Positions 1 through 61,297 of a stretch of DNA of 64,000 bases are shown in pieces (position 1 is the first letter of the stretch; every line of letters begins with the position of its first letter). The stretch lies in the NCBI GenBank assembly GCA_000092065.1, contig CP000592.1, one strand, 5' to 3'. The position numbers were made by a program, and so were the translations under genes. The notes below the pieces were generated by a model. It was not told where the DNA came from and did not search any database. It saw only the letters and a list, made by a program, of their open reading frames with translations. Source of the DNA: Ostreococcus lucimarinus (Eukaryota).

Positions 1-2689
1 TTTACGGTTGGCTGGGTTGAGTGAAAATTTTGCACAGCACACAACTCGTACGTCGATACTGGCGCGCAAAGCAGGGCACATCACCGAAGGCGTTCAAGCC
101 ATTCGCGCATTACGAATAATGGCGAGTCGTCTATCGTCAATTTTGCCCGGAAAGCCTCTACCAAACTTGATTCTTTCCAGGACGGCGCCGTGGCGAGTCG
201 AAGAAGCTAAGCTGTTGTGGGCCGAGGGAAAGGCTGAATCCTCCATCGCCATCGTCAATTCCATCGTGCAACTCATGCTTCCCGGGCAAGCGTCCTACGT
301 CACGAACTCGAAGACTGGAACTCCGACAGAAGAAGTAGGCGTGACAGAGCCGGAAGCAAATCCAGACGCTCGATTCTTTGAACTTCTTTGTTTATTGTCG
401 AAGTGGCAGGCGAGCGCACGCACTGAGTCTAGCAAGGTGATTTTACGCAGACTCTTGGATGGCGTCAACGGTTTGACAATGGCGTATAGAAAAGGCCTGC
501 TCGACAAGACGGGTAAGAAAATCACTAGGGGTAGTCGCGGTCAAAACGTCGTGGTGTACACCAAAGACGGGATCAATCCCGTTACGCAGCTCAGATTGCT
601 GAGTCGCGCTCATTTCCGTTTGGCCCAATTCACCGATTCGCAGTATCGACAACTCGAAGAACGCATGAATTCTCCAGAATGGATTCGTTCCGAAGCCTTG
701 CGACAACGCAATGAAAACGAATTGACGCATCTCAAAAGCGAGCGAGAGGTGAATAGAAACGCCCTTCGCTCTAAAAAGAAGGGAAGTGCAGCGTACAACG
801 AGCTCGCAAAAGCGATTCATAGTATGAACGCTCGATGTGGTCCACTGGAGATGCAAGTTTTGAACGATCAAAACGAAACCGTGAGCATGTACAACGAACA
901 CACGAGTTCGCTTATTTCCGCATTGCAAGCTTACAGACGGTCTCTTGAAGCTGGTGGGTGGAATTCTCAGAAAAGCATTTTTAGAATGATCGCGCTTTGG
1001 TTTACGCATTGCGGCGGCGGAAGTAATCGTTCGAGAAGCAAAATGGAAACACTCAAGGTGATCAAAGCAGTGAATGCTGAGCTTGAAAAGCTCATCAACC
1101 GCCCCACAATTCCAAGCTACGTTTTTGTCGAGTTGTCTCATCAAATAGTCAGTCGCCTCGGCTCGCCGTGTGCTCCGGAGAACGATTTCATCAAGGTGCT
1201 TGAACAACTGGTGTTGCGCATCATGAGAGATCACCCGTATCACGTGCTGTATCAAATACAAGCGTTGACGCGGGGTGATCGCGTTGCGCGCGCGGGCGTC
1301 TGCGCGACAAATGAAAAGATCGTCGCGGCAAAACGATTACTTGAAACTTACAGTTCGGAATCGAATGATCGAAAATTGATGTTGTCGCAAATGGAACGCT
1401 TGATCGAAGCATACATTCACATCGCTCAGTTGAAGTTACCTCAAGACGAAAGCCTCGTTTTTCATCCTCTTCCAAACGATGTGAAAAAGCGAGCCTTGTG
1501 CAACTTGAAGATGATCCCAGTACCCACGGCACCGATGGCAGTAGATCCGGCGTGCAAGTACCCAGACGGAAGTTTCCCGTACTTTCTTCACTTCGCCGAC
1601 AGCACGCGCTTGGTGGGCGGCATCAATGAGCCGAAGCTTTTGGGCTGTCACGGATCCGATGGTCAGGTGTATCGACAGCTGGCGAAAAGTGGAAACGATG
1701 ACTTACGTCAGGACGCTGTGATTCAGCAGTTTTTCGGGCTCGTGAACACTTTGCTGAAGCAAAATACGAGTACAAATTCGCGCAGCATGCGAATTCGCAC
1801 TTACAAAGTCATTCCGTTTTCTCCCGAGGCTGGTCTTCTCGAATGGGTGGACGAAACCGTTTTACTTTCGAACTATCTTATTCGCGACAAGAAGGGCGCG
1901 CACGAGCGTTATCGACCTCACGATATGAAATCCAGGGATATCTCGCAGATGATGCGAGATGCAGTGACAGCTGAAGCGCAACACAAGATGTACGAAGAAG
2001 TGTGCGAAAACTTTAAACCGGTCATGCACAACTTTTTCCTGGAACATTACCCAGACCCGAGCAATTGGTTCGAACGTCGCGTTGCATACTCGAGATCATG
2101 CGCGGTGAACTCCATCGTCGGCTACGTCATCGGCCTTGGCGATCGACACAGCAGCAATATCATGATTGACAAATGGACCGCCGAATTCATCCACATCGAT
2201 TTTGGCGTCACGTTTGAGCAAGGCTTGACGCTAAAGACTCCCGAACGCGTTCCATTCCGTCTGACGCGCGATATCGTCGATGGTATGGGCGCGTGTGGCG
2301 TCGAAGGCATCATGCGCCGGTGCTGCGAAGAAACTATGAAGGTGCTTCGCTCAAACAGAGACGCCCTCACCACCATCATCGCCGTCCTCGTGCACGACCC
2401 CATCTTAAAGTGGGCCGTCGGAGGTCGTCGTCAAAACGCGAACATCTTCAGGACCACTACGATGTTCGGTACGATCGCCTACGCCCTCAATCCCGACCGC
2501 GAGGTCGTCCCCAGCGACGAAGGCAACCTCGACGCCGAACGCGCTCTCATGCGCGTCAAACAAAAACTCGACGGTTACGAAGACGGCGAGCTCCGCTCCA
2601 TCGAAGGTCAGGTCCAACAACTCCTCCACGACGCCCGCGATCCACACAAATTGGCAGTCATGTACGCCGGCTGGGCACCGTGGGTGTAA
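1..2689 (+). CDS. ATM: ATM/Tel1-family PIKK serine/threonine kinase, C-terminal portion (FAT C-terminal region, PI3K/PI4K catalytic domain, FATC). The 5' part lies outside the window.
   Basis: The reading frame of ORF 8..2689 is open to the window start. It has the catalytic loop GDRHSSNIMID and the IDFG activation motif. The FATC tail (...DPHKLAVMYAGWAPWV) parallels the human ATM C-terminus (...DPKNLSRLFPGWKAWV). Confidence 0.9.
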   Translation, partial: LRLAGLSENFAQHTTRTSILARKAGHITEGVQAIRALRIMASRLSSILPGKPLPNLILSRTAPWRVEEAKLLWAEGKAESSIAIVNSIVQLMLPGQASYVTNSKTGTPTEEVGVTEPEANPDARFFELLCLLSKWQASARTESSKVILRRLLDGVNGLTMAYRKGLLDKTGKKITRGSRGQNVVVYTKDGINPVTQLRLLSRAHFRLAQFTDSQYRQLEERMNSPEWIRSEALRQRNENELTHLKSEREVNRNALRSKKKGSAAYNELAKAIHSMNARCGPLEMQVLNDQNETVSMYNEHTSSLISALQAYRRSLEAGGWNSQKSIFRMIALWFTHCGGGSNRSRSKMETLKVIKAVNAELEKLINRPTIPSYVFVELSHQIVSRLGSPCAPENDFIKVLEQLVLRIMRDHPYHVLYQIQALTRGDRVARAGVCATNEKIVAAKRLLETYSSESNDRKLMLSQMERLIEAYIHIAQLKLPQDESLVFHPLPNDVKKRALCNLKMIPVPTAPMAVDPACKYPDGSFPYFLHFADSTRLVGGINEPKLLGCHGSDGQVYRQLAKSGNDDLRQDAVIQQFFGLVNTLLKQNTSTNSRSMRIRTYKVIPFSPEAGLLEWVDETVLLSNYLIRDKKGAHERYRPHDMKSRDISQMMRDAVTAEAQHKMYEEVCENFKPVMHNFFLEHYPDPSNWFERRVAYSRSCAVNSIVGYVIGLGDRHSSNIMIDKWTAEFIHIDFGVTFEQGLTLKTPERVPFRLTRDIVDGMGACGVEGIMRRCCEETMKVLRSNRDALTTIIAVLVHDPILKWAVGGRRQNANIFRTTTMFGTIAYALNPDREVVPSDEGNLDAERALMRVKQKLDGYEDGELRSIEGQVQQLLHDARDPHKLAVMYAGWAPWV

Positions 2690-3648: not shown

Positions 3649-4023
3649 GCTCTGAGTGCACTCAAAAAAGCCACGCCGCACTTCTGCGCGCGCATGTTGC
3701 GGCGTCCACCGACGCGCATCGAGCTTAAAACGGAGGATAAAGAAGAGGTACGCGCGACGTCGACTCGGTGCGAACGAACGCGAGCGAGCGCCGCCCGAGC
3801 GCGACGACTGACGATGAAGAACCAAAGTTTGAACAACTCCGACGAGATTACTTAAAGTCGCGTGAACGCGGCGCCGAGGGAGCGACGCGCGCGGACGCGG
3901 ACGCGATTCGACGACTGGAGCGCGAGCGCGAGCGCGCGCGAAGACTTGGGCTCGATCGCGCGGTGCACGACGTGGAAGAGGACGGGAACTAATCGCTTAG
4001 TTGGTCGGTTGCGCGGGGCAAAC

Positions 4024-4853: not shown

Positions 4854-5691
4854 ATGTGGCTCTTCAAGAAACAAAAGACTCCGCAGGAGCTGTTGCGCGA
4901 GAACAAGCGCATGCTCGACAGATCCATTCGAGAAATCGATCGCGAACGGTCAGCCATGATGTCGCAAGAAAAGAAGCTCATAGCGGAGATTAAGCGCGTG
5001 GCCAAGGCGAATCAGATGGGCGCGGTGAAGGTGCGCGCGTGGACGATCGTGCGCGAGGGCGAAAACGCGCGGTGTCGGCGCGATGATGCGTTGGAGGGGA
5101 TGAAGGTGGAAGCGCGACGCGGCGGTCGGAATTGACCACGGCGACTGACGGAACGAAACGAACGTGCGTCGCGCGATGTAGGTGATGGCGAAGGATTTAG
5201 TGCGCACGAGACACTCGATAACGAAGTTCTATGCGCTTAAATCCCAGTTGCAAGGGGTGTCGCTGCGAATGCAAACGTTGAAGAGCTCGCAGGCTATGGC
5301 GGACGCGATGCGAGGCGTGACGACGGCGATGAAGTCGATGAACACCAAACTGAATTTACCCTCGTTGCAAAATATATTGAAGGAGTTTGAGCGACAGAAT
5401 GAAAAGATGGAGATGACGACAGAGGTGATGGGGGACGCAATCGACGATGCGTTCGAGGGTGAGGATGAAGAGGAGGAGACGGATGAACTCGTGAACGCGG
5501 TGTTGGACGAACTGGGATGCAACGTCGGGGCGGAATTAATCTCGGCGCCCGCGGGTAAGGTTGGCGCCGCCGTCGATGCCGAACGAGTGGCGCCAACCGC
5601 GGTCCTAGAGGGTGGTTCGGCTGAGCCCGCGACCGGGGGTGGCGGGCTTGACGACGATTTACAGGCGCGCCTCGACGCTCTTCGCAAGTGA
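4854..5691 (+). CDS. CHMP2: ESCRT-III subunit CHMP2/Vps2 (Snf7 family). Two exons: 4854..5030 and 5182..5691.
   Basis: Exon 1 (MWLFKKQKTPQELLRENKRMLDRSIREIDRE...ANQMGAVK) and exon 2 (VMAKDLVRTRHSITKF...LQARLDALRK) are collinear with human CHMP2A (...QMDAVRIMAKDLVRTR...). The donor is AAG|GTGCGC and the acceptor is TGTAG|GTG. The frame is restored across the junction. Confidence 0.85.
5031..5181 (+). other. Intron of CHMP2 (151 nt, GT..AG, with a GACTGACG branch-like motif about 32 nt upstream of the AG).
   Basis: Required to join two ORFs that are homologous to contiguous parts of CHMP2A. Confidence 0.8.
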
Positions 5692-7129: not shown

Positions 7130-7600
7130 CGCGCCGCCGCCGCCGCCGCCGCCGCCGTCCCGGTCGCGCGCGCGTTCGAGCCGCGCGCGCGCGCTCGCGC
7201 GTTCGAGCCGCGCCGTCGCGCGCCGCCGAGGCGCGCGCGATCGTCCGTCGTCGTCTCGCGCGTCGCGTCGTCCCGCGTCGCGCTCTGCGCGCGCGCGCGT
7301 CACTCCGCGTCGCGTCGTCGATGCCGTTCGTGCACATCGCGTGGTGCGTTTCGCCGCGCCGCGCCGCGACGCGACCTCGACTGACGCCGCGCGCGCGCGT
7401 GCAGGTTACCCAAGGCGTGTCGCACGCCCGAAGCGCGCAAGGAGGTCGCGCGCGCGGTGATCAACGCGCTGGTGAGCGTCAAGAGCGCGGACATCAGCGC
7501 CGATAAGGTGGTCGTGCGATTCAGCGAAGCGGTCGACGGGTTCGCGCTGCCGCCGGGGCACACGCGCGAGAGCGTGGACGCCAAGTAAGGCGAAGGCGAG

Positions 7601-16847: not shown

Positions 16848-17470
16848 ATGTCTTACCTTCTTCCCCATCTCCGCAACGGGTGGGCCGTCGACCAGGCGAT
16901 CTTGAGCGAAGAGGACCGCGTCGTGGTCATTCGTTTCGGTTCCGACGCCGACGACACGTGCATGCGCATGGACGAGGTGCGCGCGCGACGAAACTCGCGC
17001 GACTCGACCGATTCTCGCGTCGATTCCGACGACTGACGACGACGATTTCGCCCGTTCGCGCGACGCAGACCTTAGCGGGGGTGGCGGATAAGATTAAAAA
17101 CTTTGCCATCATATACTTGGTGGACATCTCGGAGGTAAGCGTCGACGCGCGACGACGACGACGACGACGACGACGACGGCTGGCGCCGCCGCGAAGCGAC
17201 GACTGACGAACGAACGGACGAACGAACGACGCGCAGGTGCCCGATTTTAACGCCATGTACGAGCTGTACGACCCGTGCACGGTGATGTTCTTCTTCCGGA
17301 ACAAGCACATACAGATCGATCTCGGGACGGGGAACAACAACAAGGTGAACTGGGCGATGGACGATAAGCAGGAGTTCATCGACATCGTGGAGACGGTGTA
17401 CACGGGCGCGCGCAAGGGGCGGGGTTTGGTGATCTCTCCGAGGGATTACTCGACGAAATATCGATACTAG
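16848..17470 (+). CDS. TXNL4A: U5 snRNP protein DIM1 / thioredoxin-like 4A. Three exons: 16848..16976, 17069..17134, 17237..17470.
   Basis: The spliced product MSYLLPHLRNGWAVDQAILSEEDRVVVIRFGSDADDTCMRMDE|TLAGVADKIKNFAIIYLVDISE|VPDFNAMYELYDPCTVMFFFRNKHIQIDLGTGNNNKVNWAMDDKQEF...SPRDYSTKYRY is 142 aa and about 80% identical to human DIM1 throughout. The donors are GAG|GTGCGC and GAG|GTAAGC; the acceptors are CGCAG|ACC and CGCAG|GTG. Confidence 0.85.
16977..17068 (+). other. DIM1 intron 1 (92 nt, GT..AG, with a GACTGACG motif about 30 nt upstream of the AG).
   Basis: Required for collinearity with DIM1. Confidence 0.75.
17135..17236 (+). other. DIM1 intron 2 (102 nt, GTAAGC..CAG; contains a (GACGAC)n run and a GACTGACG motif about 28 nt upstream of the AG).
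   Basis: Required for collinearity with DIM1 (…VDISE|VPDFN…). Confidence 0.8.
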
Positions 17471-41306: not shown

Positions 41307-44300
41307 ATGGGCGTCCGCGACCTGTGGCGGCTGCTCGAACCGAGCGGTCGTCGCGCGGACGCCGACAGCGTGCGAGGCAAGCGCGTGGCCGTCGACGCGT
41401 CCATCTGGCTGGTGCAATTCATCAAGGCGACGCGCGACGAAGACGGCGACGTCGCGGCGCGCGCGCACGTCGCCGGGTTCTTTCGCAGGATCGCGCGGTT
41501 GCTGCGTCACGGCGCGCGACCGGTGTTCGTGTTCGACGGGGCGACGCCGGCGCTGAAGAGGCGGACGACGGCGACGCGACGACGCGCGCGGGAGCGGAGC
41601 GCGGCGAAGGTGCGCGTGGCGGCGGAGAAGGTTTTGTTGAACGAACTGAAGCGACGGGCGCTGGTGGCGGCGGCGAACGGAGGGGAGGTGGGAAATGGAG
41701 GGGGGGTGGCGATCGCGGCGCGCGATGGGGACGATGGAGACGACGGCGACGAGCGGGATTCGGAGGCGGAGGCGGAGGAGGAGGAGGAGGAGGAGTTGGA
41801 CGTGTTCGTGCCGGACGGCGAATCGATCGATCCCGAGGTGCTCGGCGCGCTGCCGCCGTCGGTGCGAATGGAGGTCGTGATGCGAATGCGGGATAAGCGC
41901 GTGGCGGATAATCGAGAGCATTTCGCCGCGGCTTCGGGAAAGATGCAAGATTTCAGCGCGTTGCAGTTGGAGACGTATCTTAAAGGGACGAAATTGAAGC
42001 GAGAGATCGATCGCGTGATGCAGAAATCGGATTTGAACGATCCGATGACGTCCAAACGCGTCGCGGCGCAGGATAATCGCGATTTTATATTTGCCGGACC
42101 ATCTTCGTCGAATCGAACGACTTCGAGCGGAGCGCTGGCGCTCGCGCCGCCGCAGCCGCCGCCGTCGACGTCGGGGGTGTTAGGTTTGACGACGGGTACG
42201 TTTGCGTCGGATCAACTCGCTGGGGTGCGAACGGGGCGACGTGGTCGCGCGCCGACGGCGCTCGTCGCGCCGCAAGAACGATTTTTAGTGACGAACCTTC
42301 ACCCGACGCTTCCGACGCCATCAGTCGCCAAATCCGTCGCGGAGACGCCCATCGTGTTGAGCAAAGAGCCATCGACGTTGGATTTGCAAATCTCATTCAC
42401 CACGGAAAATATCAAAGCTGCGGCGAAAGACCCGTTATTCGCGAGCGCGGACGACGCCACGGCGGCCGATGAAGACGAAGACGACATCGTCGCCGTTGCC
42501 GACGCCGACGAGGAATGGGAAGACGTGGAAGACGACGTCAAACCGTCGCCCGCGAAACTCGCGCTTGCCGCGCCGTCACCGCTAGCCCGTCATGACGATG
42601 ACGTTATGGATTTGAGTGAAGACGCTGACGACGCCGATGATGAGTCACACGGCGATGGAACCGCGTTGAAACGCAAGAGCGTGTACTCTCTCAGCCACGG
42701 TTTTCTCAAAGGGCGAAGCTTGGGTGGATGGGACGCCGACGAAGAAGAGGCTGCTGTGCGAGCCGCGGCGGAGGCTGAAACAGAAGCAGACGTCGACGCC
42801 GCAATAGCCATCGGTGTGCGAGGAGATGAAGAAGCGTTAGCGCCGTTGAATCACGACGACGAGAGTGAGCAGTTGCAAAGGGCCATCGCGATGAGCGTCG
42901 CTACGGCGCGCGAGGAAGAGTCGCCGACCAAGGCAGCCGCAGACGGTGTGGAAGTTGAAGCACAATTAGAAACGAACGAGAGTGAAGACGGAAACAACAA
43001 TGATGATGATGACAAAGATGACGACGGGTTGAAAGCAGCGATAGCGATGAGTTTGGCCAAGCACGTCGACGATTCTTTGAAACAGTCGGATGATTCTAAA
43101 GAAGTAGACGTCGTCGAGATTGAAGAAACGAAGCAAGAAGAAGAAATCGATTCGGAAGAAGAGCAGTGGATCGAGGCGGCGCGCGAAGCTGAACGCATCG
43201 CCGAGCGCGCCCGAGTGGAACGTCTAATTTGCGAAGCAGAGGAAGAGCAAGAGCGTCTGAAGCATGAGATTCGTCAAGCCAAGAAAGGTGCCGAACACGT
43301 CACGGATGAGATGTACCGAGACGTCCAAGAACTGCTCACGCTTTTCGGAATTCCTTACATCATCGCGCCGCAAGAAGCTGAAGCGCAGTGCGCGTATCTC
43401 AACCAGCACAAGCTTGTCGACGCCGTCATCACGGACGATAGCGATGTCTTTCTGTTTGGCGCATCGCACGTGTACAGAAACTTTTTCTCGGAGAAAAAAT
43501 ACTGCGAAGTCTACACCGCAGATCGTATCAAGAGAGAACTAGGACTCGATCGAGATCGTTTCATTCAACTCGCGCTCTTGCTCGGGAGCGATTACACCGA
43601 AGGCGTCGGCGGCGTCGGCATCGTGAACGCGCTCGAAATCGTCAGCGTGTTTAAAGGAAACGTTATGGATGCGAGTAAAGCGTTCAGAGAGTGGATTGAT
43701 ATGGAAGAACTCACCATGGTTCCCGAACGCTTGCTTCCTTCGCCGTCGAAAACGTCCGCGGAGAGCGCGACGGACGACGCGATCACCGCCGCCTTCAAAG
43801 AGAAACATCGCTCGCTGAAAAAGAGTTGGGAAGTTCCCGCGAATTACCCATCCCTAGAAGTCGTCAAAGCGTACCAGTATCCGTCAGTCGATCAAAGCGA
43901 AGAAACTTTCGAGTGGGGAAAGCCTGACTTGGACATGCTTCGCTTGTTTTGCATCAAGACGTTGTCGTGGACGCGAGACGCGGCGGATCAAATTTTGCTC
44001 CCGATGATGAAATCGTGGTCGAAACGCGACGACCAGCGTCGCATCGATAGCTTCTTCGAAACTTCTCACGCTGTGAGCTCGCGAGTGGCGAAATTCCGCT
44101 CGAAACGTCTCGGAGACGCGGTGAAAAATCTCACCAACGCCTCGGGATCCGAAGTCGCGGCGATGATTCTCAAGAGAACTCGCGAGGAGGCGTTGGGAGA
44201 CGTCATCGTGGATTACGACGATGATCAGCACGACAACGCGGTTTCCGACCCGGAACCTAAACTCGACGACGGCGACGACGCCGATTTCGCTGACTTGGAC

Positions 44301-56041: not shown

Positions 56042-56218
56042 TGCGTTCGTGGAAAACTAATCGTTCGCTAAACGCTCGTAGCGCTTGAAATTAGACGTTT
56101 CACCTTTTCAACCTCGCGTTTTCAAACTCGCTCGGGACAGCCGAGCGGGACGACAGCCGCATTCTCGCGCATGCTCCTCGGCGTCGGCGCGCGATTTCAA
56201 ATCGTCTTACAACGCACG

Positions 56219-57166
56219 ATGTCGAACAAAATAACCGCTCTCGGCGCCGCCAAACCGAAGGCGCAGATGGGGCTCGGCGCTTTTCTCGTCAAGGGTGTCA
56301 AGATGAGCGAAAACAAAATCCTCGCCGCGAGCGCGCCCACGCGCGCGGTCGCCGTCGAAGCGAAGGCGAAAGAGAACGCGGCGAGCGCTTCGACGAACAC
56401 CGCGGAAGGCGCGGGCGCGGAGGCGACGAAGGCGGAGAAGACGACGTCGCGCGGGAGAAAGACTTCAAAACCGGCGTCGTTCGAAGCGTCGCCGGCGAAG
56501 CGCGCGAAGAAAGCGGCCGGCCCCGGCCCCGATCGCTCGCACGAAAAGAAACACTGGGAAGCAGGTCGTCATCGAGTCGTAGGCGTGGACGAAGCGGGAC
56601 GGGGACCGTTGGCAGGACCTGTGGTGGCGGCGGCGTGCTTCGTGCCGAAGGATTGCGTCGTCGACTGCGTCAACGACTCCAAGCAGCTCACTGAGGAGGG
56701 CAGAGAGGAGATCTTCGAGGAGCTCATGGCGAATAAGGATATCGAGTACGGGGTGTGCGTGATCGATCAAGATCGCATCGATGAGATTAATATTTTGGAG
56801 TGCACGATGGAGGCGATGCACCGAAGCGCCGCCGACGTGCCGAACGTGGACTGGGTGTTAATCGACGGGAATCGCGTTCCGAAGCCGCTGGAAGGCAAAG
56901 CCGAAGCGATCGTGAAAGGTGACGCGAAGAACGTCGCCATCGCCGCCGCGTCTATCATCGCCAAGGTCACGCGGGATCGAATGATGCTCGAAATCGACAA
57001 GGAATTTCCGATGTACGGCTTCAAGGACCACAAAGGATACGGCACCAAGGCGCACATGGCGGCGATCGACAAACACGGCCCGTGCGTGTACCACAGGAAA
57101 ACCTTCGCGCCGATCAAGCACATGGACTTGTCTAAGTGGCCGGAGTGCATGAAGAAGAAGACCTAG
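56219..57166 (+). CDS. rnhB: Bacterial-type ribonuclease HII (RnhB) with a Lys/Ala-rich N-terminal extension; probably organellar.
   Basis: VVGVDEAGRGPLAGPVVAAACFVP…DSKQLTEEGREEIFEEL…DHKGYGTKAHMAAIDKHGPCVYHRKTFAPIK matches the RNase HII family rather than the eukaryotic RNase H2A. The start is taken at Met 17 of ORF 56171..57166. Confidence 0.85.
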   Translation: MSNKITALGAAKPKAQMGLGAFLVKGVKMSENKILAASAPTRAVAVEAKAKENAASASTNTAEGAGAEATKAEKTTSRGRKTSKPASFEASPAKRAKKAAGPGPDRSHEKKHWEAGRHRVVGVDEAGRGPLAGPVVAAACFVPKDCVVDCVNDSKQLTEEGREEIFEELMANKDIEYGVCVIDQDRIDEINILECTMEAMHRSAADVPNVDWVLIDGNRVPKPLEGKAEAIVKGDAKNVAIAAASIIAKVTRDRMMLEIDKEFPMYGFKDHKGYGTKAHMAAIDKHGPCVYHRKTFAPIKHMDLSKWPECMKKKT

Positions 57167-57234
57167 TGCGCGCTATCGATTCAATACAACTATTTCTGCT
57201 ACGCTACGCTCGACGCGACGGTCCCGCTCTCGCC

Positions 57235-57534
57235 CTACATCACCGCCCGGTACACCCCGAGCGCGACGAACGCCGCCGCGAACGCCCCCATGGCGATCTT
57301 ATGCGACAAAACGCGTCGAGGTTCTCGGTACACCTCCCACGTCACCATCGCCGCGCCCACGGCGCAGGCGGACGTGCCTAAAACTCGACAGCTCAGGCAA
57401 TCGTCGGCGTTCGTCGCCTTCGCGCTCGTTCGCGGGGCGTAGGTGAGGTGCGAGAACGGAATCGACGTCGCGGCGCGCGCGCTCGACGCGGCGCTCGATT
57501 CGCGCGCGCGCGCGCCGTCGACGCCGTCGGGCAT
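57235..57534 (-). CDS. Hypothetical small Cys-containing membrane protein.
   Basis: A 99-aa ORF with CLSCRVLGTSACAVGAAMVTWEVY and a second hydrophobic segment IAMGAFAAAFVALGVY. No confident family. Confidence 0.3.
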   Translation of the reverse strand: MPDGVDGARARESSAASSARAATSIPFSHLTYAPRTSAKATNADDCLSCRVLGTSACAVGAAMVTWEVYREPRRVLSHKIAMGAFAAAFVALGVYRAVM

Positions 57535-57610
57535 GTCGTCGAGGTCTGAGGAGGCGTGGTCGGCGGTTAGTTGAGCTTTCGCGCGCGGCGGTTGCGTCTA
57601 ATATATGTTA

Positions 57611-60599
57611 CTACGTAGTCGCGGGCGCTTCAGGCGCCGGTGCATGCGCATCATCGACGGTTCCTTCGATGGAAGTAGTCGCGTGCACTTCGTGTGCCGG
57701 TGCATCCACGTCATCAGTGTCCATCGGCGCGGGCGCGGCCACAGGTACGCCCGGAACCGTTTTGGTTTGCAGCGGGTGTGCACCCCCCTGCTCTTGCGTG
57801 GGTTTGGCGTCGCCTTTCGAGTATTTCATGTCGACAAAATGAGTCGCTCGATAGTCATCGATCATCGCCACGTAAGCGAGCACTTCTTTCATCGAACGTA
57901 ATTTGTGGCCGCTTGGTGAGAGGAATTCTTTGTACGAAGTCCCCGCAAGACGTCCACCTTTTCGCTCAAACACGTCTACACGCCAGCCGCGACCGCGAAT
58001 GTCGATATTGGGCGCGTGCTTTTCGACATACGCGTACAATTTCTCAAGTTCGCTCGCTGTCGCGTTTCTGACGGCGAATTTCGTCTCGCGAACCTCGCTG
58101 ACTGGCTTCGCGGCGGTCGTTTTCGGCTTCTTCAACTCCAACCGATCTCTAAGTCGCACATTCTCCTCTTGCAGAGCGCGTACTTTCGCGCGCGAACTGT
58201 CGAGCTGGAACTCACGAGTTTGCACGCGTACTCGTAATCTTTCGAGCTCTCCTGCGTATGATTTCATTTCCTCTACGCTCACGGTGGAAGAGCCGTTGAT
58301 GCCCCTCTTAATATTCTGATCAATATAACGCGCATTTGCAGCGCGTTCCTCCGCGAGTTCTGTCTCGAGCTGCACGAACTTTTCCTCGAGAATCTTGAAG
58401 AAGCTCTCATCGATGACGGTTGAGAGCGCTTTGGGAACTCGAACCATCTGGTTTGGCTCTGCTTTGACATCAGGACGCTCCATATTGCTTTCTTCTTTCT
58501 CAGTGACTGTTTTCTTTGCATCTGCCGCTGCCGCGACTTTATTGACCAAAAGTGGAGGAACGGCAATAGCAGGCGAAGGCTCGACCGTTTGATCATCGAC
58601 CGCAGTGCGCACTTGAGCCTCTCGCATTAAATTCTCGCGCCGCGACACCGCAGTCGGTGCGGACGTCGGTGCGGAGTGGAACGCGTCGCCAGTGTCCGTT
58701 TCCGTTCTTGTCGGCCCGCGTGCGTCCGCTGCGGCGTGCGACGCTAGCGCAGGAACCACGAATTCCTCGTCTTCAATTCTAGTTTGCCATTGATACTCAA
58801 ACTCTCTTGACATGATGCGCGCCATCTTGAACACTGGCGTGTCGTCTTTGTTGTAAGTCATCGCATTGGACCAAACCAGTCGAACGTCGGCGGCGTACGC
58901 CTCGACATTTTTCTCGTCGTAATACCCCGCGTCGATGCGTTCTTTAATCGTACCGAGATCCATCGGATTTTTAATGACTTCGAAGTAGTCTGGAATCTCC
59001 CAGTACACCGGATCGACTGGACGCAAGAAAATGTACGCGTTCTTGTGTACCATGAGAGAGCGATGAATCGACTTGATGCGGGTAAGTGGGGTCGCGACAC
59101 GTCCGCCTTTCGGCCTACCGCGCGGCGCTGGAGCCTTATTCGCACCGTCGCTCCCTCCATCTTCATCGTCTTCGTCGAACGAGCTAGACTTGTGCAAACG
59201 TTTTCGTCGCTTCGCCGTTTGCTTCAAAGACGTCGTTCCCGCGCCGCGGCCGCCGCCGCCGGCTAAACGATACCTTTGAATACCGAAATAATAATCCTGC
59301 ATGCATTGCACTAGATGACGCTTGAACTTTTGATAGGTGATGTCGGCCTCCTTGAATGCTTGTTTGTTGTGTGTCGGTTCCAAGGAGTCCGCCTCGATGA
59401 CACCGATCATATCCTTCATCATTGTGTTCGCCTGCAGCTGCGAACCGAAGCGTTGGTGCATGCGAATCAATCGGTTCTTGTTGTAAATGTGGAACCCACA
59501 CTTCTTCGAAGTTTCATCCGCGGCGTATCCGATGTGAATCGTGATTCCCGCGTCCAAGCCTCGCGGCTTGTACTCCGGAAACACATAATATTCTCGCGCG
59601 AGATGCGCGATCGGGTCTCGCGGCACGACTGGTCGCCCGCGAAGCGTGAATTCGCACCGCGGTTTCAGGTACAAAATTTCCATGTAAGCACGTAAACTAT
59701 AGTCTTCCTGCACATCAATCGACGCCTGCTGGCCTTCGCGCGATTGTTGGAAAATCGGTCCGCGCACCGCTCGCTCGTCATCTGGGATAGCCCCCACCAG
59801 ACGAATGTCATCCTTGTAGCTCGTGAAATCCAACTCGGGCGGATCGCGCAAGTTGAAAAGTACGATGCGCGTCCCGTGTGAACCTCTTATCTTGTCCAAC
59901 TCTCGCATCAACTGTGGCTCCGAGGGTACGAATGAATATCGCAAGATCACAGACATGTGTTCATCCCATTTTTTCGTATTCGCTGGTTCGCTCGCGACGT
60001 ATGAAACCCTGCCGCCAGTCGTCGCGTCTCGCTCCATCCTCCACGAAAACATCGGAATCAGAATGTCGTCCAGCTCGGCGTCATCTAAAAACGTCTGTGA
60101 CAGGAACGCGACGTGGGCGTACCCATCTCTTTTCGTCAATATCAACGCGTCTCGCGCCAATCGCATCGATCCAGACTTAAAACCGATACCAAACCGCCCG
60201 ACGTTCCCAGCCTTGTGTTCCTTGTCGCTAAAACCAAACGACAGCATGCCGACCAGTCGCCGACGATCCATGCCCACGCCGTCGTCTTGAACGATGATGC
60301 CCACATTATTCTTGGGATCGACCATTTTAGAAAGCTCTACGACGTCGACGTGTACGGCTTTGGCTCCACACTCCGCGTCTTGCGCGCTACGTTCGAGCGA
60401 GAGCGAACGCGCGCGTCAGTCTCGCGTTCCGTCGCGTCGAAACGAAGAAAATCGAGCGAAAACGAGATTCACCGCGCCTCTCAAAATCGCATCGCTCCGC
60501 TTCGTAAACGCACTTATCGATCAGTTCCGCGAGCGCCCCTAACGGCCACACGTGACTCGTGGCGTTACCTGCGCTCAAAAACGACGCGACGCTCCGCAT
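57611..60599 (-). CDS. MORC: MORC-family GHKL ATPase fused to a bromodomain, a coiled coil and a methyl-CpG-binding domain. Two exons: 60599..60514 and 60386..57611 on the minus strand.
   Basis: Spliced N-terminus: MRSVASFLSAGNATSHVWPLGALAELID|NAQDAECGAKAVHVDVVELSKMVDPKNNVGIIVQDDGVGM..., which matches the MORC N-box/D-box (human MORC2 …[26 protein letters not shown]…FLDDGCGM). GRFGIGFKSGSMRLARDALILTK is the G-box region. Bromodomain: KNAYIFLRPVDPVYWEIPDYFEVIKNPMDLGTIKERIDAGYY...VWSNAMTYN. MBD: RGRGWRVDVFERKGGRLAGTSYKEFLSPSGHKLRSMKEVLAYV. Confidence 0.8.
60387..60513 (-). other. MORC intron (127 nt, phase 2). The donor is GAT AA|GTGCGT and the acceptor is GTAG|C, with a GACTGACG motif about 27 nt upstream of the AG.
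   Basis: Splicing joins AA + C to create the invariant Asn codon of the GHKL N-box (ELIDNAQDA). Without the intron the first exon (ORF 60387..60599) and the main ORF are in different frames. Confidence 0.75.
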
Positions 60600-61297
60600 C
60601 AGTCAGTCTTCAGTCTCCGCGACTCGCCGTCTCCGCGATCGTCCCGATTCTCCGCGATCGCGCGCCGCTTTCCCCGCGTTTCCCCCTCACATCTCTCACG
60701 CACTCTTCAGCATCCGCGGGTGCGCCTTCGAGTGTTCCATAGCTCGCGCATCTCTCTGTCGATCCACGTCGAACGTCACTCCGGGAGCCGTCGCGCGCTC
60801 TTCCTCCTCCTCGCCGTCCCGTTCGTCGCCGACGCGTTCCAGCCCCGCCAGCTCCACGCGTTGTGGTTTTTGCTTCCGTCTCTGCGTCGTTCCGTCCCGG
60901 TCCCACCGTCAGTCGTCCGCGACGCGCGAAACCGTCGCATCCGTCTCCTCCCGCGTCCGCGTCGCGCGTCGCGCGCGCGCGCCGCGACGGTCGCACCATT
61001 CCGCTCGACGTTCGCCCGCGCGCGTCCCGTCGCGAACCGATTCACGAAAACCCGCGTCGACGCGCCGATCCCGCGAATCGCCCGCCGTCGCGCGCGCTCG
61101 CGGCGCAATAATTTAACCCGCGCGTCGCGTCGCGCGCGCGACGTCGTTCGCGCGCGCGCGACGAAGTGCCGCGCGCCGTCGCGGCGTCCGAGCGCGGGCA
61201 ACAACGCGCGCGTTCGGACGCACGAGGACGCGCGACGCCGCCGTCTCTCGGCGCACACGCGCGCGCGCGCGACGCGAAGATTTTTCTCCGCCTCGGC
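60600..61297. promoter_or_regulatory. Putative bidirectional promoter / extremely GC-rich (CGCG-rich) spacer between MORC (-) and the CotH-domain gene (+).
   Basis: About 700 bp between divergent start codons. It contains only Arg-rich artefactual ORFs. Confidence 0.3.

Follow-up and report, generated by a model that had tools for sequence, protein, structure and literature searches.

Organisation of the MORC locus

The MORC gene of the green alga Ostreococcus lucimarinus was analysed in a 64-kb stretch of contig CP000592.1 (the window; 61% GC), where it lies on the minus strand; all coordinates are window positions. The analysis centred on a 127-nucleotide (nt) element at 60513..60387, which was found to be, almost beyond doubt, a canonical U2-type spliceosomal intron and the last of three short introns that the single O. 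lucimarinus MORC gene has at its 5' end. The final model comprises four coding exons on the minus strand (60999-60997, 60881-60704, 60568-60514 and 60386-57611) and encodes a protein of 1003 amino acids (aa) with MORC GHKL, Morc6_S5, bromodomain and MBD regions. The model was compared with a set of spliced transcripts composed of eight contigs (L008-L015) from eight sequencing runs, out of 22 on record carrying the transcript open reading frame (ORF) P0264. These contigs come from Logan, which gathers assemblies of public sequencing runs, and were placed by blastn on the window, where they follow the minus strand colinearly at about 99.9% identity. P0264, a 1003-aa ORF in the 90%-identity cluster of the window ORF, begins MRRKQKPQRVELAGLERVGDERDGEEEEERATVPGVTFDVDRQRDARAMEHSKAHPRMLKSNATSHVWPLGALAELIDNAQDAECGAKAVHVDV and is identical to the four-exon translation except for A33V and P624S.

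The 5' untranslated region (UTR; 61000..61152) was delimited by the blastn placement of the eight contigs, with 5' ends at 61101-61152 (61127 in five of them), and lies in the same exon as the start codon. Since intron 1 directly follows the start codon at 60999..60997, the first coding exon supplies only the ATG; transcript block 1 ends at 60997 and P0264 starts M|RRKQKP. Intron 1 (60882..60996, 115 nt) presents the donor GTGCGAC, the branch motif CGACTGACGG with its branch A at 60909 (27 nt from the 3' end) and the acceptor CGCAG. At the place matching the end of this intron, the Ostreococcus contigs L016 and L017 read cgcag|AGACGGAA(G/A)CA(G/A)AAGCCG. Coding exon 2 (60704..60881, 178 nt) encodes RRKQKPQRVELAG…DARAMEHSKAHPRMLK and the first base of the Ser61 codon, and is followed by intron 2 (60569..60703, 135 nt), which is in phase 1 (A|GT, Ser61), with the donor GTGCGTG, the branch motif AGACTGACTG (branch A at 60603, 34 nt from the 3' end) and the acceptor GCGCAG. 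Introns 1 and 2 are both missing from all eight transcripts. Coding exon 3 (60514..60568), matched at 100% over its 55 nt in each of the transcripts, encodes (S)NATSHVWPLGALAELID and the AA of the Asn79 codon. Intron 3 then leads to coding exon 4 (57611..60386, 2776 nt with the stop codon), which contributes the third base of the Asn79 codon, the remainder of the GHKL region, Morc6_S5, the bromodomain, an unannotated stretch in between and the MBD. The 3' UTR (57570..57610) is short, with poly(A) addition at about 57577 and 57571, as deduced from the A-runs of L011 and L013.

Intron 2 contains the ATG at 60599 that opens a 70-aa ORF (60387..60599). This ORF had been described in the initial annotation, which was made from the raw sequence, as an upstream ORF in another frame, ending with the motif PLGALAELIDKCVY; the motif is present, but it lies in the middle of the ORF, which stops at the acceptor TAG of intron 3. 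The homologs P0140, P0154, P0159 and P0295 carry MEHSK(S/A)HPRMLKSNATSH without interruption, and MEHSK(S/A)HPRMLKSNATSHVW is likewise uninterrupted in transcriptome homologs and intron-free relatives. In the window, MEHSKAHPRMLK at 60740..60705 is followed by A|GTGCGTG, and the frame restarts after GCGCAG| at 60568 with GT AAC GCC. The uninterrupted sequence of the homologs, together with this restart, indicates that the 70-aa ORF begins with 31 nt of intron 2. A start at ATG 60599 was rejected, because the homologs run through MEHSKSHPRMLKSNATSH and the transcripts show 60599..60569 (MRSVASFLSAG) to be intronic. The upstream ORF had therefore been joined at the right position, but its 5' part is noncoding and the gene start at 60999..60997 had been missed; the inference from raw sequence is correct at the junction and incomplete upstream. 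The main ORF (57611..60325, minus strand) does start, with MVDPKNNVGIIVQDDGVGM, just before the GHKL G1 box and without the N-box, as had been proposed.

Transcript evidence and splice signals of intron 3

Exactly three gaps relative to the window (60996..60882, 60703..60569 and 60513..60387) were found in each of the eight transcript contigs. The alignment is ambiguous by 1-2 nt at junctions 1 and 2, and the third gap is intron 3 base for base, unambiguously so in all eight; the transcript blocks stop at 60514 and restart at 60386. Spliced RNA across the 60514/60386 junction, which had been suggested as a check of the intron, was thus observed in every contig examined. The contig 3' ends lie mostly between 57544 and 57596, and L011 and L013 terminate in non-templated poly(A). 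The three gaps, the shared contig ends and the poly(A) of these two contigs indicate that the contigs represent mature mRNAs.

On the minus strand, the sequence at intron 3 reads GCG GAA CTG ATC GAT AA|GTGCGTTTAC … GAGACTGACGCGCGCGTTCGCTCTCGCTCGAACGTAG|C GCG CAA GAC GCG GAG TGT, the last bases of exon 3 being GAT AA, at 60514, and the first bases of exon 4 being C GCG CAA GAC, from 60386. The intron is in phase 2 (AA|C, Asn79) and has the GT…AG termini of a U2-type intron (GTGCGT…CGTAG at 60513..60387), with the donor GTGCGTT and the acceptor ACGTAG. Its excision joins GALAELID to AQDAECG via an Asn codon spanning the junction, and the joined exons 3 and 4 read GALAELIDNAQDAECGAKAVHVDV with no frameshift. 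Between the two frames, 24 compatible, stop-free GT..AG pairs were counted, and 60513..60387 was the only one of them to have the donor GTGCGT and the only one to produce ELIDN-AQD, so that the signal of intron 3 is more than chance.

The splice signals were compared with those reported by Irimia and Roy 2008 (PMC2483917) for expressed sequence tag-confirmed O. lucimarinus introns outside chromosome 2, which have the atypical donor consensus GTGCGTG. According to the same source, ACTGAC is present in 87% of the non-chromosome-2 introns and the extended motif GACTGACG in 66.5%, with a median predicted intron length of 111 nt, as read from an unlabelled column of the table. The donor of intron 3 agrees with this consensus at six of seven positions, with T instead of G at +7. 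Its branch-site motif (60414..60421) reproduces the extended consensus exactly and stands in the context AGACTGACGC, the branch A being at 60416 and 29 nt away from the last base of the intron; the branch-like GACTGAC motif noted in the initial annotation was thereby recovered as GACTGACG at 60421..60414. All three MORC introns, as well as the intron of a Snf7 gene (5031..5181), fit the non-chromosome-2 class, the MORC introns being like it in the donor GTGCGT(G), in a branch motif near the 3' end and in a length near the median. The departures from the consensus, namely the +7 T of intron 3 and the donor GTGCGAC of intron 1, are immaterial. The 127-nt GT..AG intron originally proposed at 60387..60513 is therefore upheld by all eight transcript contigs, by the species consensus and by the position kept in related algae. 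Intron 3 is an ordinary intron of the standard O. lucimarinus type, and neither a new kind of feature nor new biology.

An introner or repeat origin was rejected, as introns 2 and 3, searched by blastn in the window, gave only GC-rich chance matches of 10-15 nt. Introners occur as many near-identical copies; no copies were found within the 64-kb window, so intron 3 is not an introner. Compared with the introner elements of Micromonas, described as repeated intron families (PMC4540971), the MORC introns are alike in being short introns of a genome of the Mamiellophyceae (the class that includes Ostreococcus and Micromonas). They are unlike the elements described there in being unique and old, with a position, but not a sequence, that is shared across genera.

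The restored ATP-binding motif of MORC

The GHKL motif I (N-box, ExxxNxxD) corresponds to E75-LID-N79-AQ-D82, which exists only after splicing and was aligned with AELIDNAYD of MORC3. Motifs II and III (DxGxG and GxxGxG) correspond to DDGVGM (113-118) and GRFGIGFKSG (142-151), and the S5 lysine loop THNKQ (417-421) was aligned with PTHNKQ of MORC3. The Pfam Morc6_S5 profile was matched over positions 1-139 of 139 (E = 8.4e-26). With the upstream exons, the start of the Pfam HATPase_c_3 match moved from profile position 32 to 5, and the E-value improved from 4.5e-12 for the ORF to 1.2e-17 with the splice of the initial annotation and 4.5e-18 for residues 1-455 in the final model.

The spliced N-terminus NATSHVWPLGALAELIDNAQDAECGAK was found to align with the MORC3 ATPase crystal structures 5ix1 and 6o1e (E of about 3e-62) from the first conserved residues, and an alignment to MORC structures, which had also been suggested as a check, returned both MORC3 and MORC2 chains. 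Relative to the animal MORC3 and MORC2 ATPase modules (PDB 5ix1, 6o1e, 5of9 and 9cdi), GHKL and S5 were aligned over about 370 residues (E = 3e-62 for MORC3), with motifs I-III and the THNKQ lysine loop common to the algal and animal proteins. Unlike animal MORC3 and MORC2, the algal protein has no CW zinc finger, and its C-terminal half consists of the bromodomain and MBD. Iyer et al. 2008 (PMC2292703) named Bromo and TAM/MBD as fusion partners of eukaryotic MORC modules, and their architecture figure includes O. tauri. All the algal, plant and animal MORC proteins in the alignment contain the pattern N(A/S)TSH.W…AEL(I/L/V)DNA.D, the truncated RefSeq model being the only exception. The claim that an Asn codon is assembled from AA and C across the junction, restoring ELIDN, is thus confirmed by the transcripts and by the homology to MORC3 and MORC2.

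The spliceosome takes out 60513..60387, and the AA of exon 3 and the C of exon 4 then form Asn79 within E75-L-I-D-N79-A-Q-D. From structural knowledge of MORC and GHKL proteins and the alignment with MORC3 and MORC2, Glu75 would serve as the general base and Asn79 as the Mg2+-ATP ligand, and both would act together with DDGVGM, GRFGIGFKSG and the THNKQ loop of S5. With every GHKL and S5 motif intact, a competent ATPase is predicted. By homology, the protein is probably an ATP-binding, dimerising chromatin ATPase, which the bromodomain and MBD may guide to acetylated histones and methylated DNA.

Alternative explanations

Some limits apply to the reading of a spliced gene for an active enzyme. 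That the contigs derive from RNA is deduced from poly(A) tails, from ends typical of transcripts and from the missing introns, the strain behind them is slightly different and departs from the window at two amino acids, and an active ATPase is reasonably expected on the basis of the intact motifs only. In the whole analysis, no evidence contradicting intron 3 was found.

The alternative that survives best, although it is improbable, is that intron 3 is real but retained under regulation. In this case, a stop at the acceptor TAG and a start at Met100 would give a 'reader-only' bromodomain-MBD isoform, N-box-less and ATPase-dead, beside the full enzyme. This would agree with the length of intron 3, which at 127 nt is not a multiple of 3 and of which read-through stops at the TAG at 60389..60387, part of the acceptor, and with the long ORF with its own ATG that begins 61 nt downstream. 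Moreover, the corresponding introns of an O. tauri-like contig (117 and 114 nt) are both multiples of 3 and are read through in the older model P0296, whereas intron 3 of O. lucimarinus breaks the frame, and the consequences of retention would therefore differ between species. Nevertheless, all eight transcript contigs are fully spliced, and no transcript-shaped unspliced contig was seen among the Logan contigs; the sole unspliced one (L001) includes part of the neighbouring gene and looks genomic. The strong consensus signals also predict efficient splicing. A more specific form of retention, in which that of intron 3 (or 2) acts as a switch, is slightly less probable still. The Met100 protein, an ATPase-dead bromodomain-MBD protein, would then compete with full-length MORC at methylated or acetylated chromatin, and, if this were true, the placement of introns within the catalytic motif would serve a function and would not be incidental. 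No support for retention leading to the Met100 isoform was found in the eight transcript contigs.

Far less credible is the absence of any intron, the single-exon 904-aa ORF (XP_001420833.1, starting MVDPKNN) being the true product and the match of ELID… and …AQD a coincidence or a decayed remnant. This ORF matches the current public gene model, which is identical to the window ORF, and prokaryote-style gene callers on metagenome contigs return the same ORF (P0142). However, the transcript contigs join the exons exactly, two of them with poly(A) tails, and the upstream exons are conserved as protein across Mamiellophyceae, plants and animals, while a MORC without motif I would have no Mg-ATP ligand. 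It is just as implausible that the intron-less contigs are artefacts of reverse-transcriptase template switching or assembly. Template switching relies on short repeats, and junctions 1 and 2 are ambiguous by 1-2 nt, but nothing repeated or ambiguous is present at junction 3. Moreover, each of the three gaps is bounded by GT..AG and carries the donor of the species, with a branch motif lying 27-34 nt before the 3' end, and the structure is identical in eight contigs from eight runs and recurs in orthologs.

Conservation in related algae

The spliced structure of the MORC gene was also found in relatives. In the O. tauri-like contig (L016), the Ser A|GT intron is 117 nt and the Asn AA|C intron 114 nt long, at the same two positions and phases as introns 2 and 3 of O. 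lucimarinus. The respective lengths are 123 and 127 nt in another Ostreococcus lineage with 62% GC (L017), and 99 and 201 nt in a Micromonas-like gene (L004), of which the MMETSP transcript P0154 is the spliced product. Judging by eye, with no formal alignment, the intron bodies vary in length and have little in common apart from the splice signals (donor, branch and acceptor), in contrast to the conserved exons on either side. Intron loss or gain has occurred in the family, as shown by two relatives with 49% GC: L018 keeps only the Ser-codon intron (165 nt), and in L019 both introns are absent.

A MORC-bromodomain gene of Cymbomonas tetramitiformis (L020, LGRX02004286.1, at about 555..660) also presents an N-box intron, GCT GAG|GTAAGA…TTGCAG|CTT GTT GAC AAT. 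It lies 11 nt upstream of the AA|C position, after the Glu codon and in phase 0, so that it is near-coincident but not homologous in register. The presence of the AA|C intron in Ostreococcus and Micromonas, its absence from L018 and L019 and the shift in Cymbomonas indicate that this intron is old in the first two genera, and neither universal nor recent.

The O. tauri ortholog (XP_022840115.1 / CEF99930.1, 'Histidine kinase-like ATPase, ATP-binding domain', 1036 aa) begins likewise with MRRKQKP…MEHSKAHPRMLKSNATSHVWPLGAIAELIDNAQDAECGA and shares with the O. lucimarinus protein the domain set GHKL, S5, bromodomain and MBD. This model is correctly spliced, unlike the RefSeq model of O. lucimarinus. 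The older one for O. tauri (UPI0000E4BE9C, P0296; 1083 aa) errs in the opposite way, as both in-frame introns are translated.

Public annotation

The 904-aa ORF at 57611..60325 (minus strand) was found to be identical, residue for residue, to XP_001420833.1 / ABO99126.1 (UniProt A4S5V0), which means that this truncated, single-exon ORF serves as the public O. lucimarinus model. The records are labelled 'predicted protein [Ostreococcus lucimarinus CCE9901]' and, for A4S5V0, 'predicted protein / Bromo domain-containing protein'. The corrected model equals XP_001420833.1 from Met100 on; the public model lacks introns 1, 2 and 3 and the 99 N-terminal residues, among them the Mg-ATP-binding Asn and GHKL motif I. 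Intron 3 seems hidden because the 2007 gene model used the longest single ORF, starting at the internal Met100.

In the O. tauri RefSeq model the orthologous introns are already spliced out, and public assemblies contain spliced O. lucimarinus-type transcripts. What is new is only the truncation of the RefSeq/UniProt entry by 99 residues at the N-terminus, and this entry should give way to the four-exon, 1003-aa model. Users of XP_001420833.1 / A4S5V0 could wrongly conclude that the MORC of O. lucimarinus is degenerate. The annotation of this species is used in comparative work, as a plant-wide survey (PMC6048995) counted a single MORC gene for O. lucimarinus. With the very strong splice signals of this species, GTGCGTG … GACTGACG, ORF-based annotation can be completed by the short 5' exons that it misses, even a first coding exon consisting of an ATG alone.

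Other features of the window

A Snf7/CHMP2-like ESCRT-III gene at about 4856..5690 (plus strand) is split by a 151-nt intron at 5031..5181. This intron, AAG|GTGCGCG … GCGACTGACGG … TGTAG|GT, includes GACTGACG and bears the same signals as the MORC introns, and the spliced product matched Pfam Snf7 over positions 1-170 of 171 (E = 6.7e-43). Exact copies of GACTGACG were observed eight times in the window, against 3.9 expected. Further exact sites are located at 3806, 7379, 17031 and 17201 (plus strand) and 43889 (minus strand), some of them paired with GTGCG donors, as in 7344..7404, 16977..17068 and 17135..17236, and may mark additional short introns. Quick spliced translation of these three candidates, and of one at about 44069..43854, did not produce a convincing ORF. 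A generic scan for donor, CTGAC, AG and open frames returned far too many false positives at 61% GC, and became useful once restricted to the published consensus.

Genes are packed extremely tightly at 57222..57610 (minus strand), where MORC transcripts are polyadenylated at about 57577 and 57571, less than 45 nt upstream of ATG 57534 of a 99-aa ORF on the same strand (57235..57534). Contigs L008-L010 extend through this ORF, and L008 and L009 continue into a convergent RNase HII gene (56171..57166, plus strand), which suggests read-through or overlapping transcripts past the MORC 3' end. No Rfam family reached the gathering threshold anywhere in the window, and a single tRNA-Ser(CGA) gene was detected in it by ARAGORN, at 7147..7221 on the plus strand.

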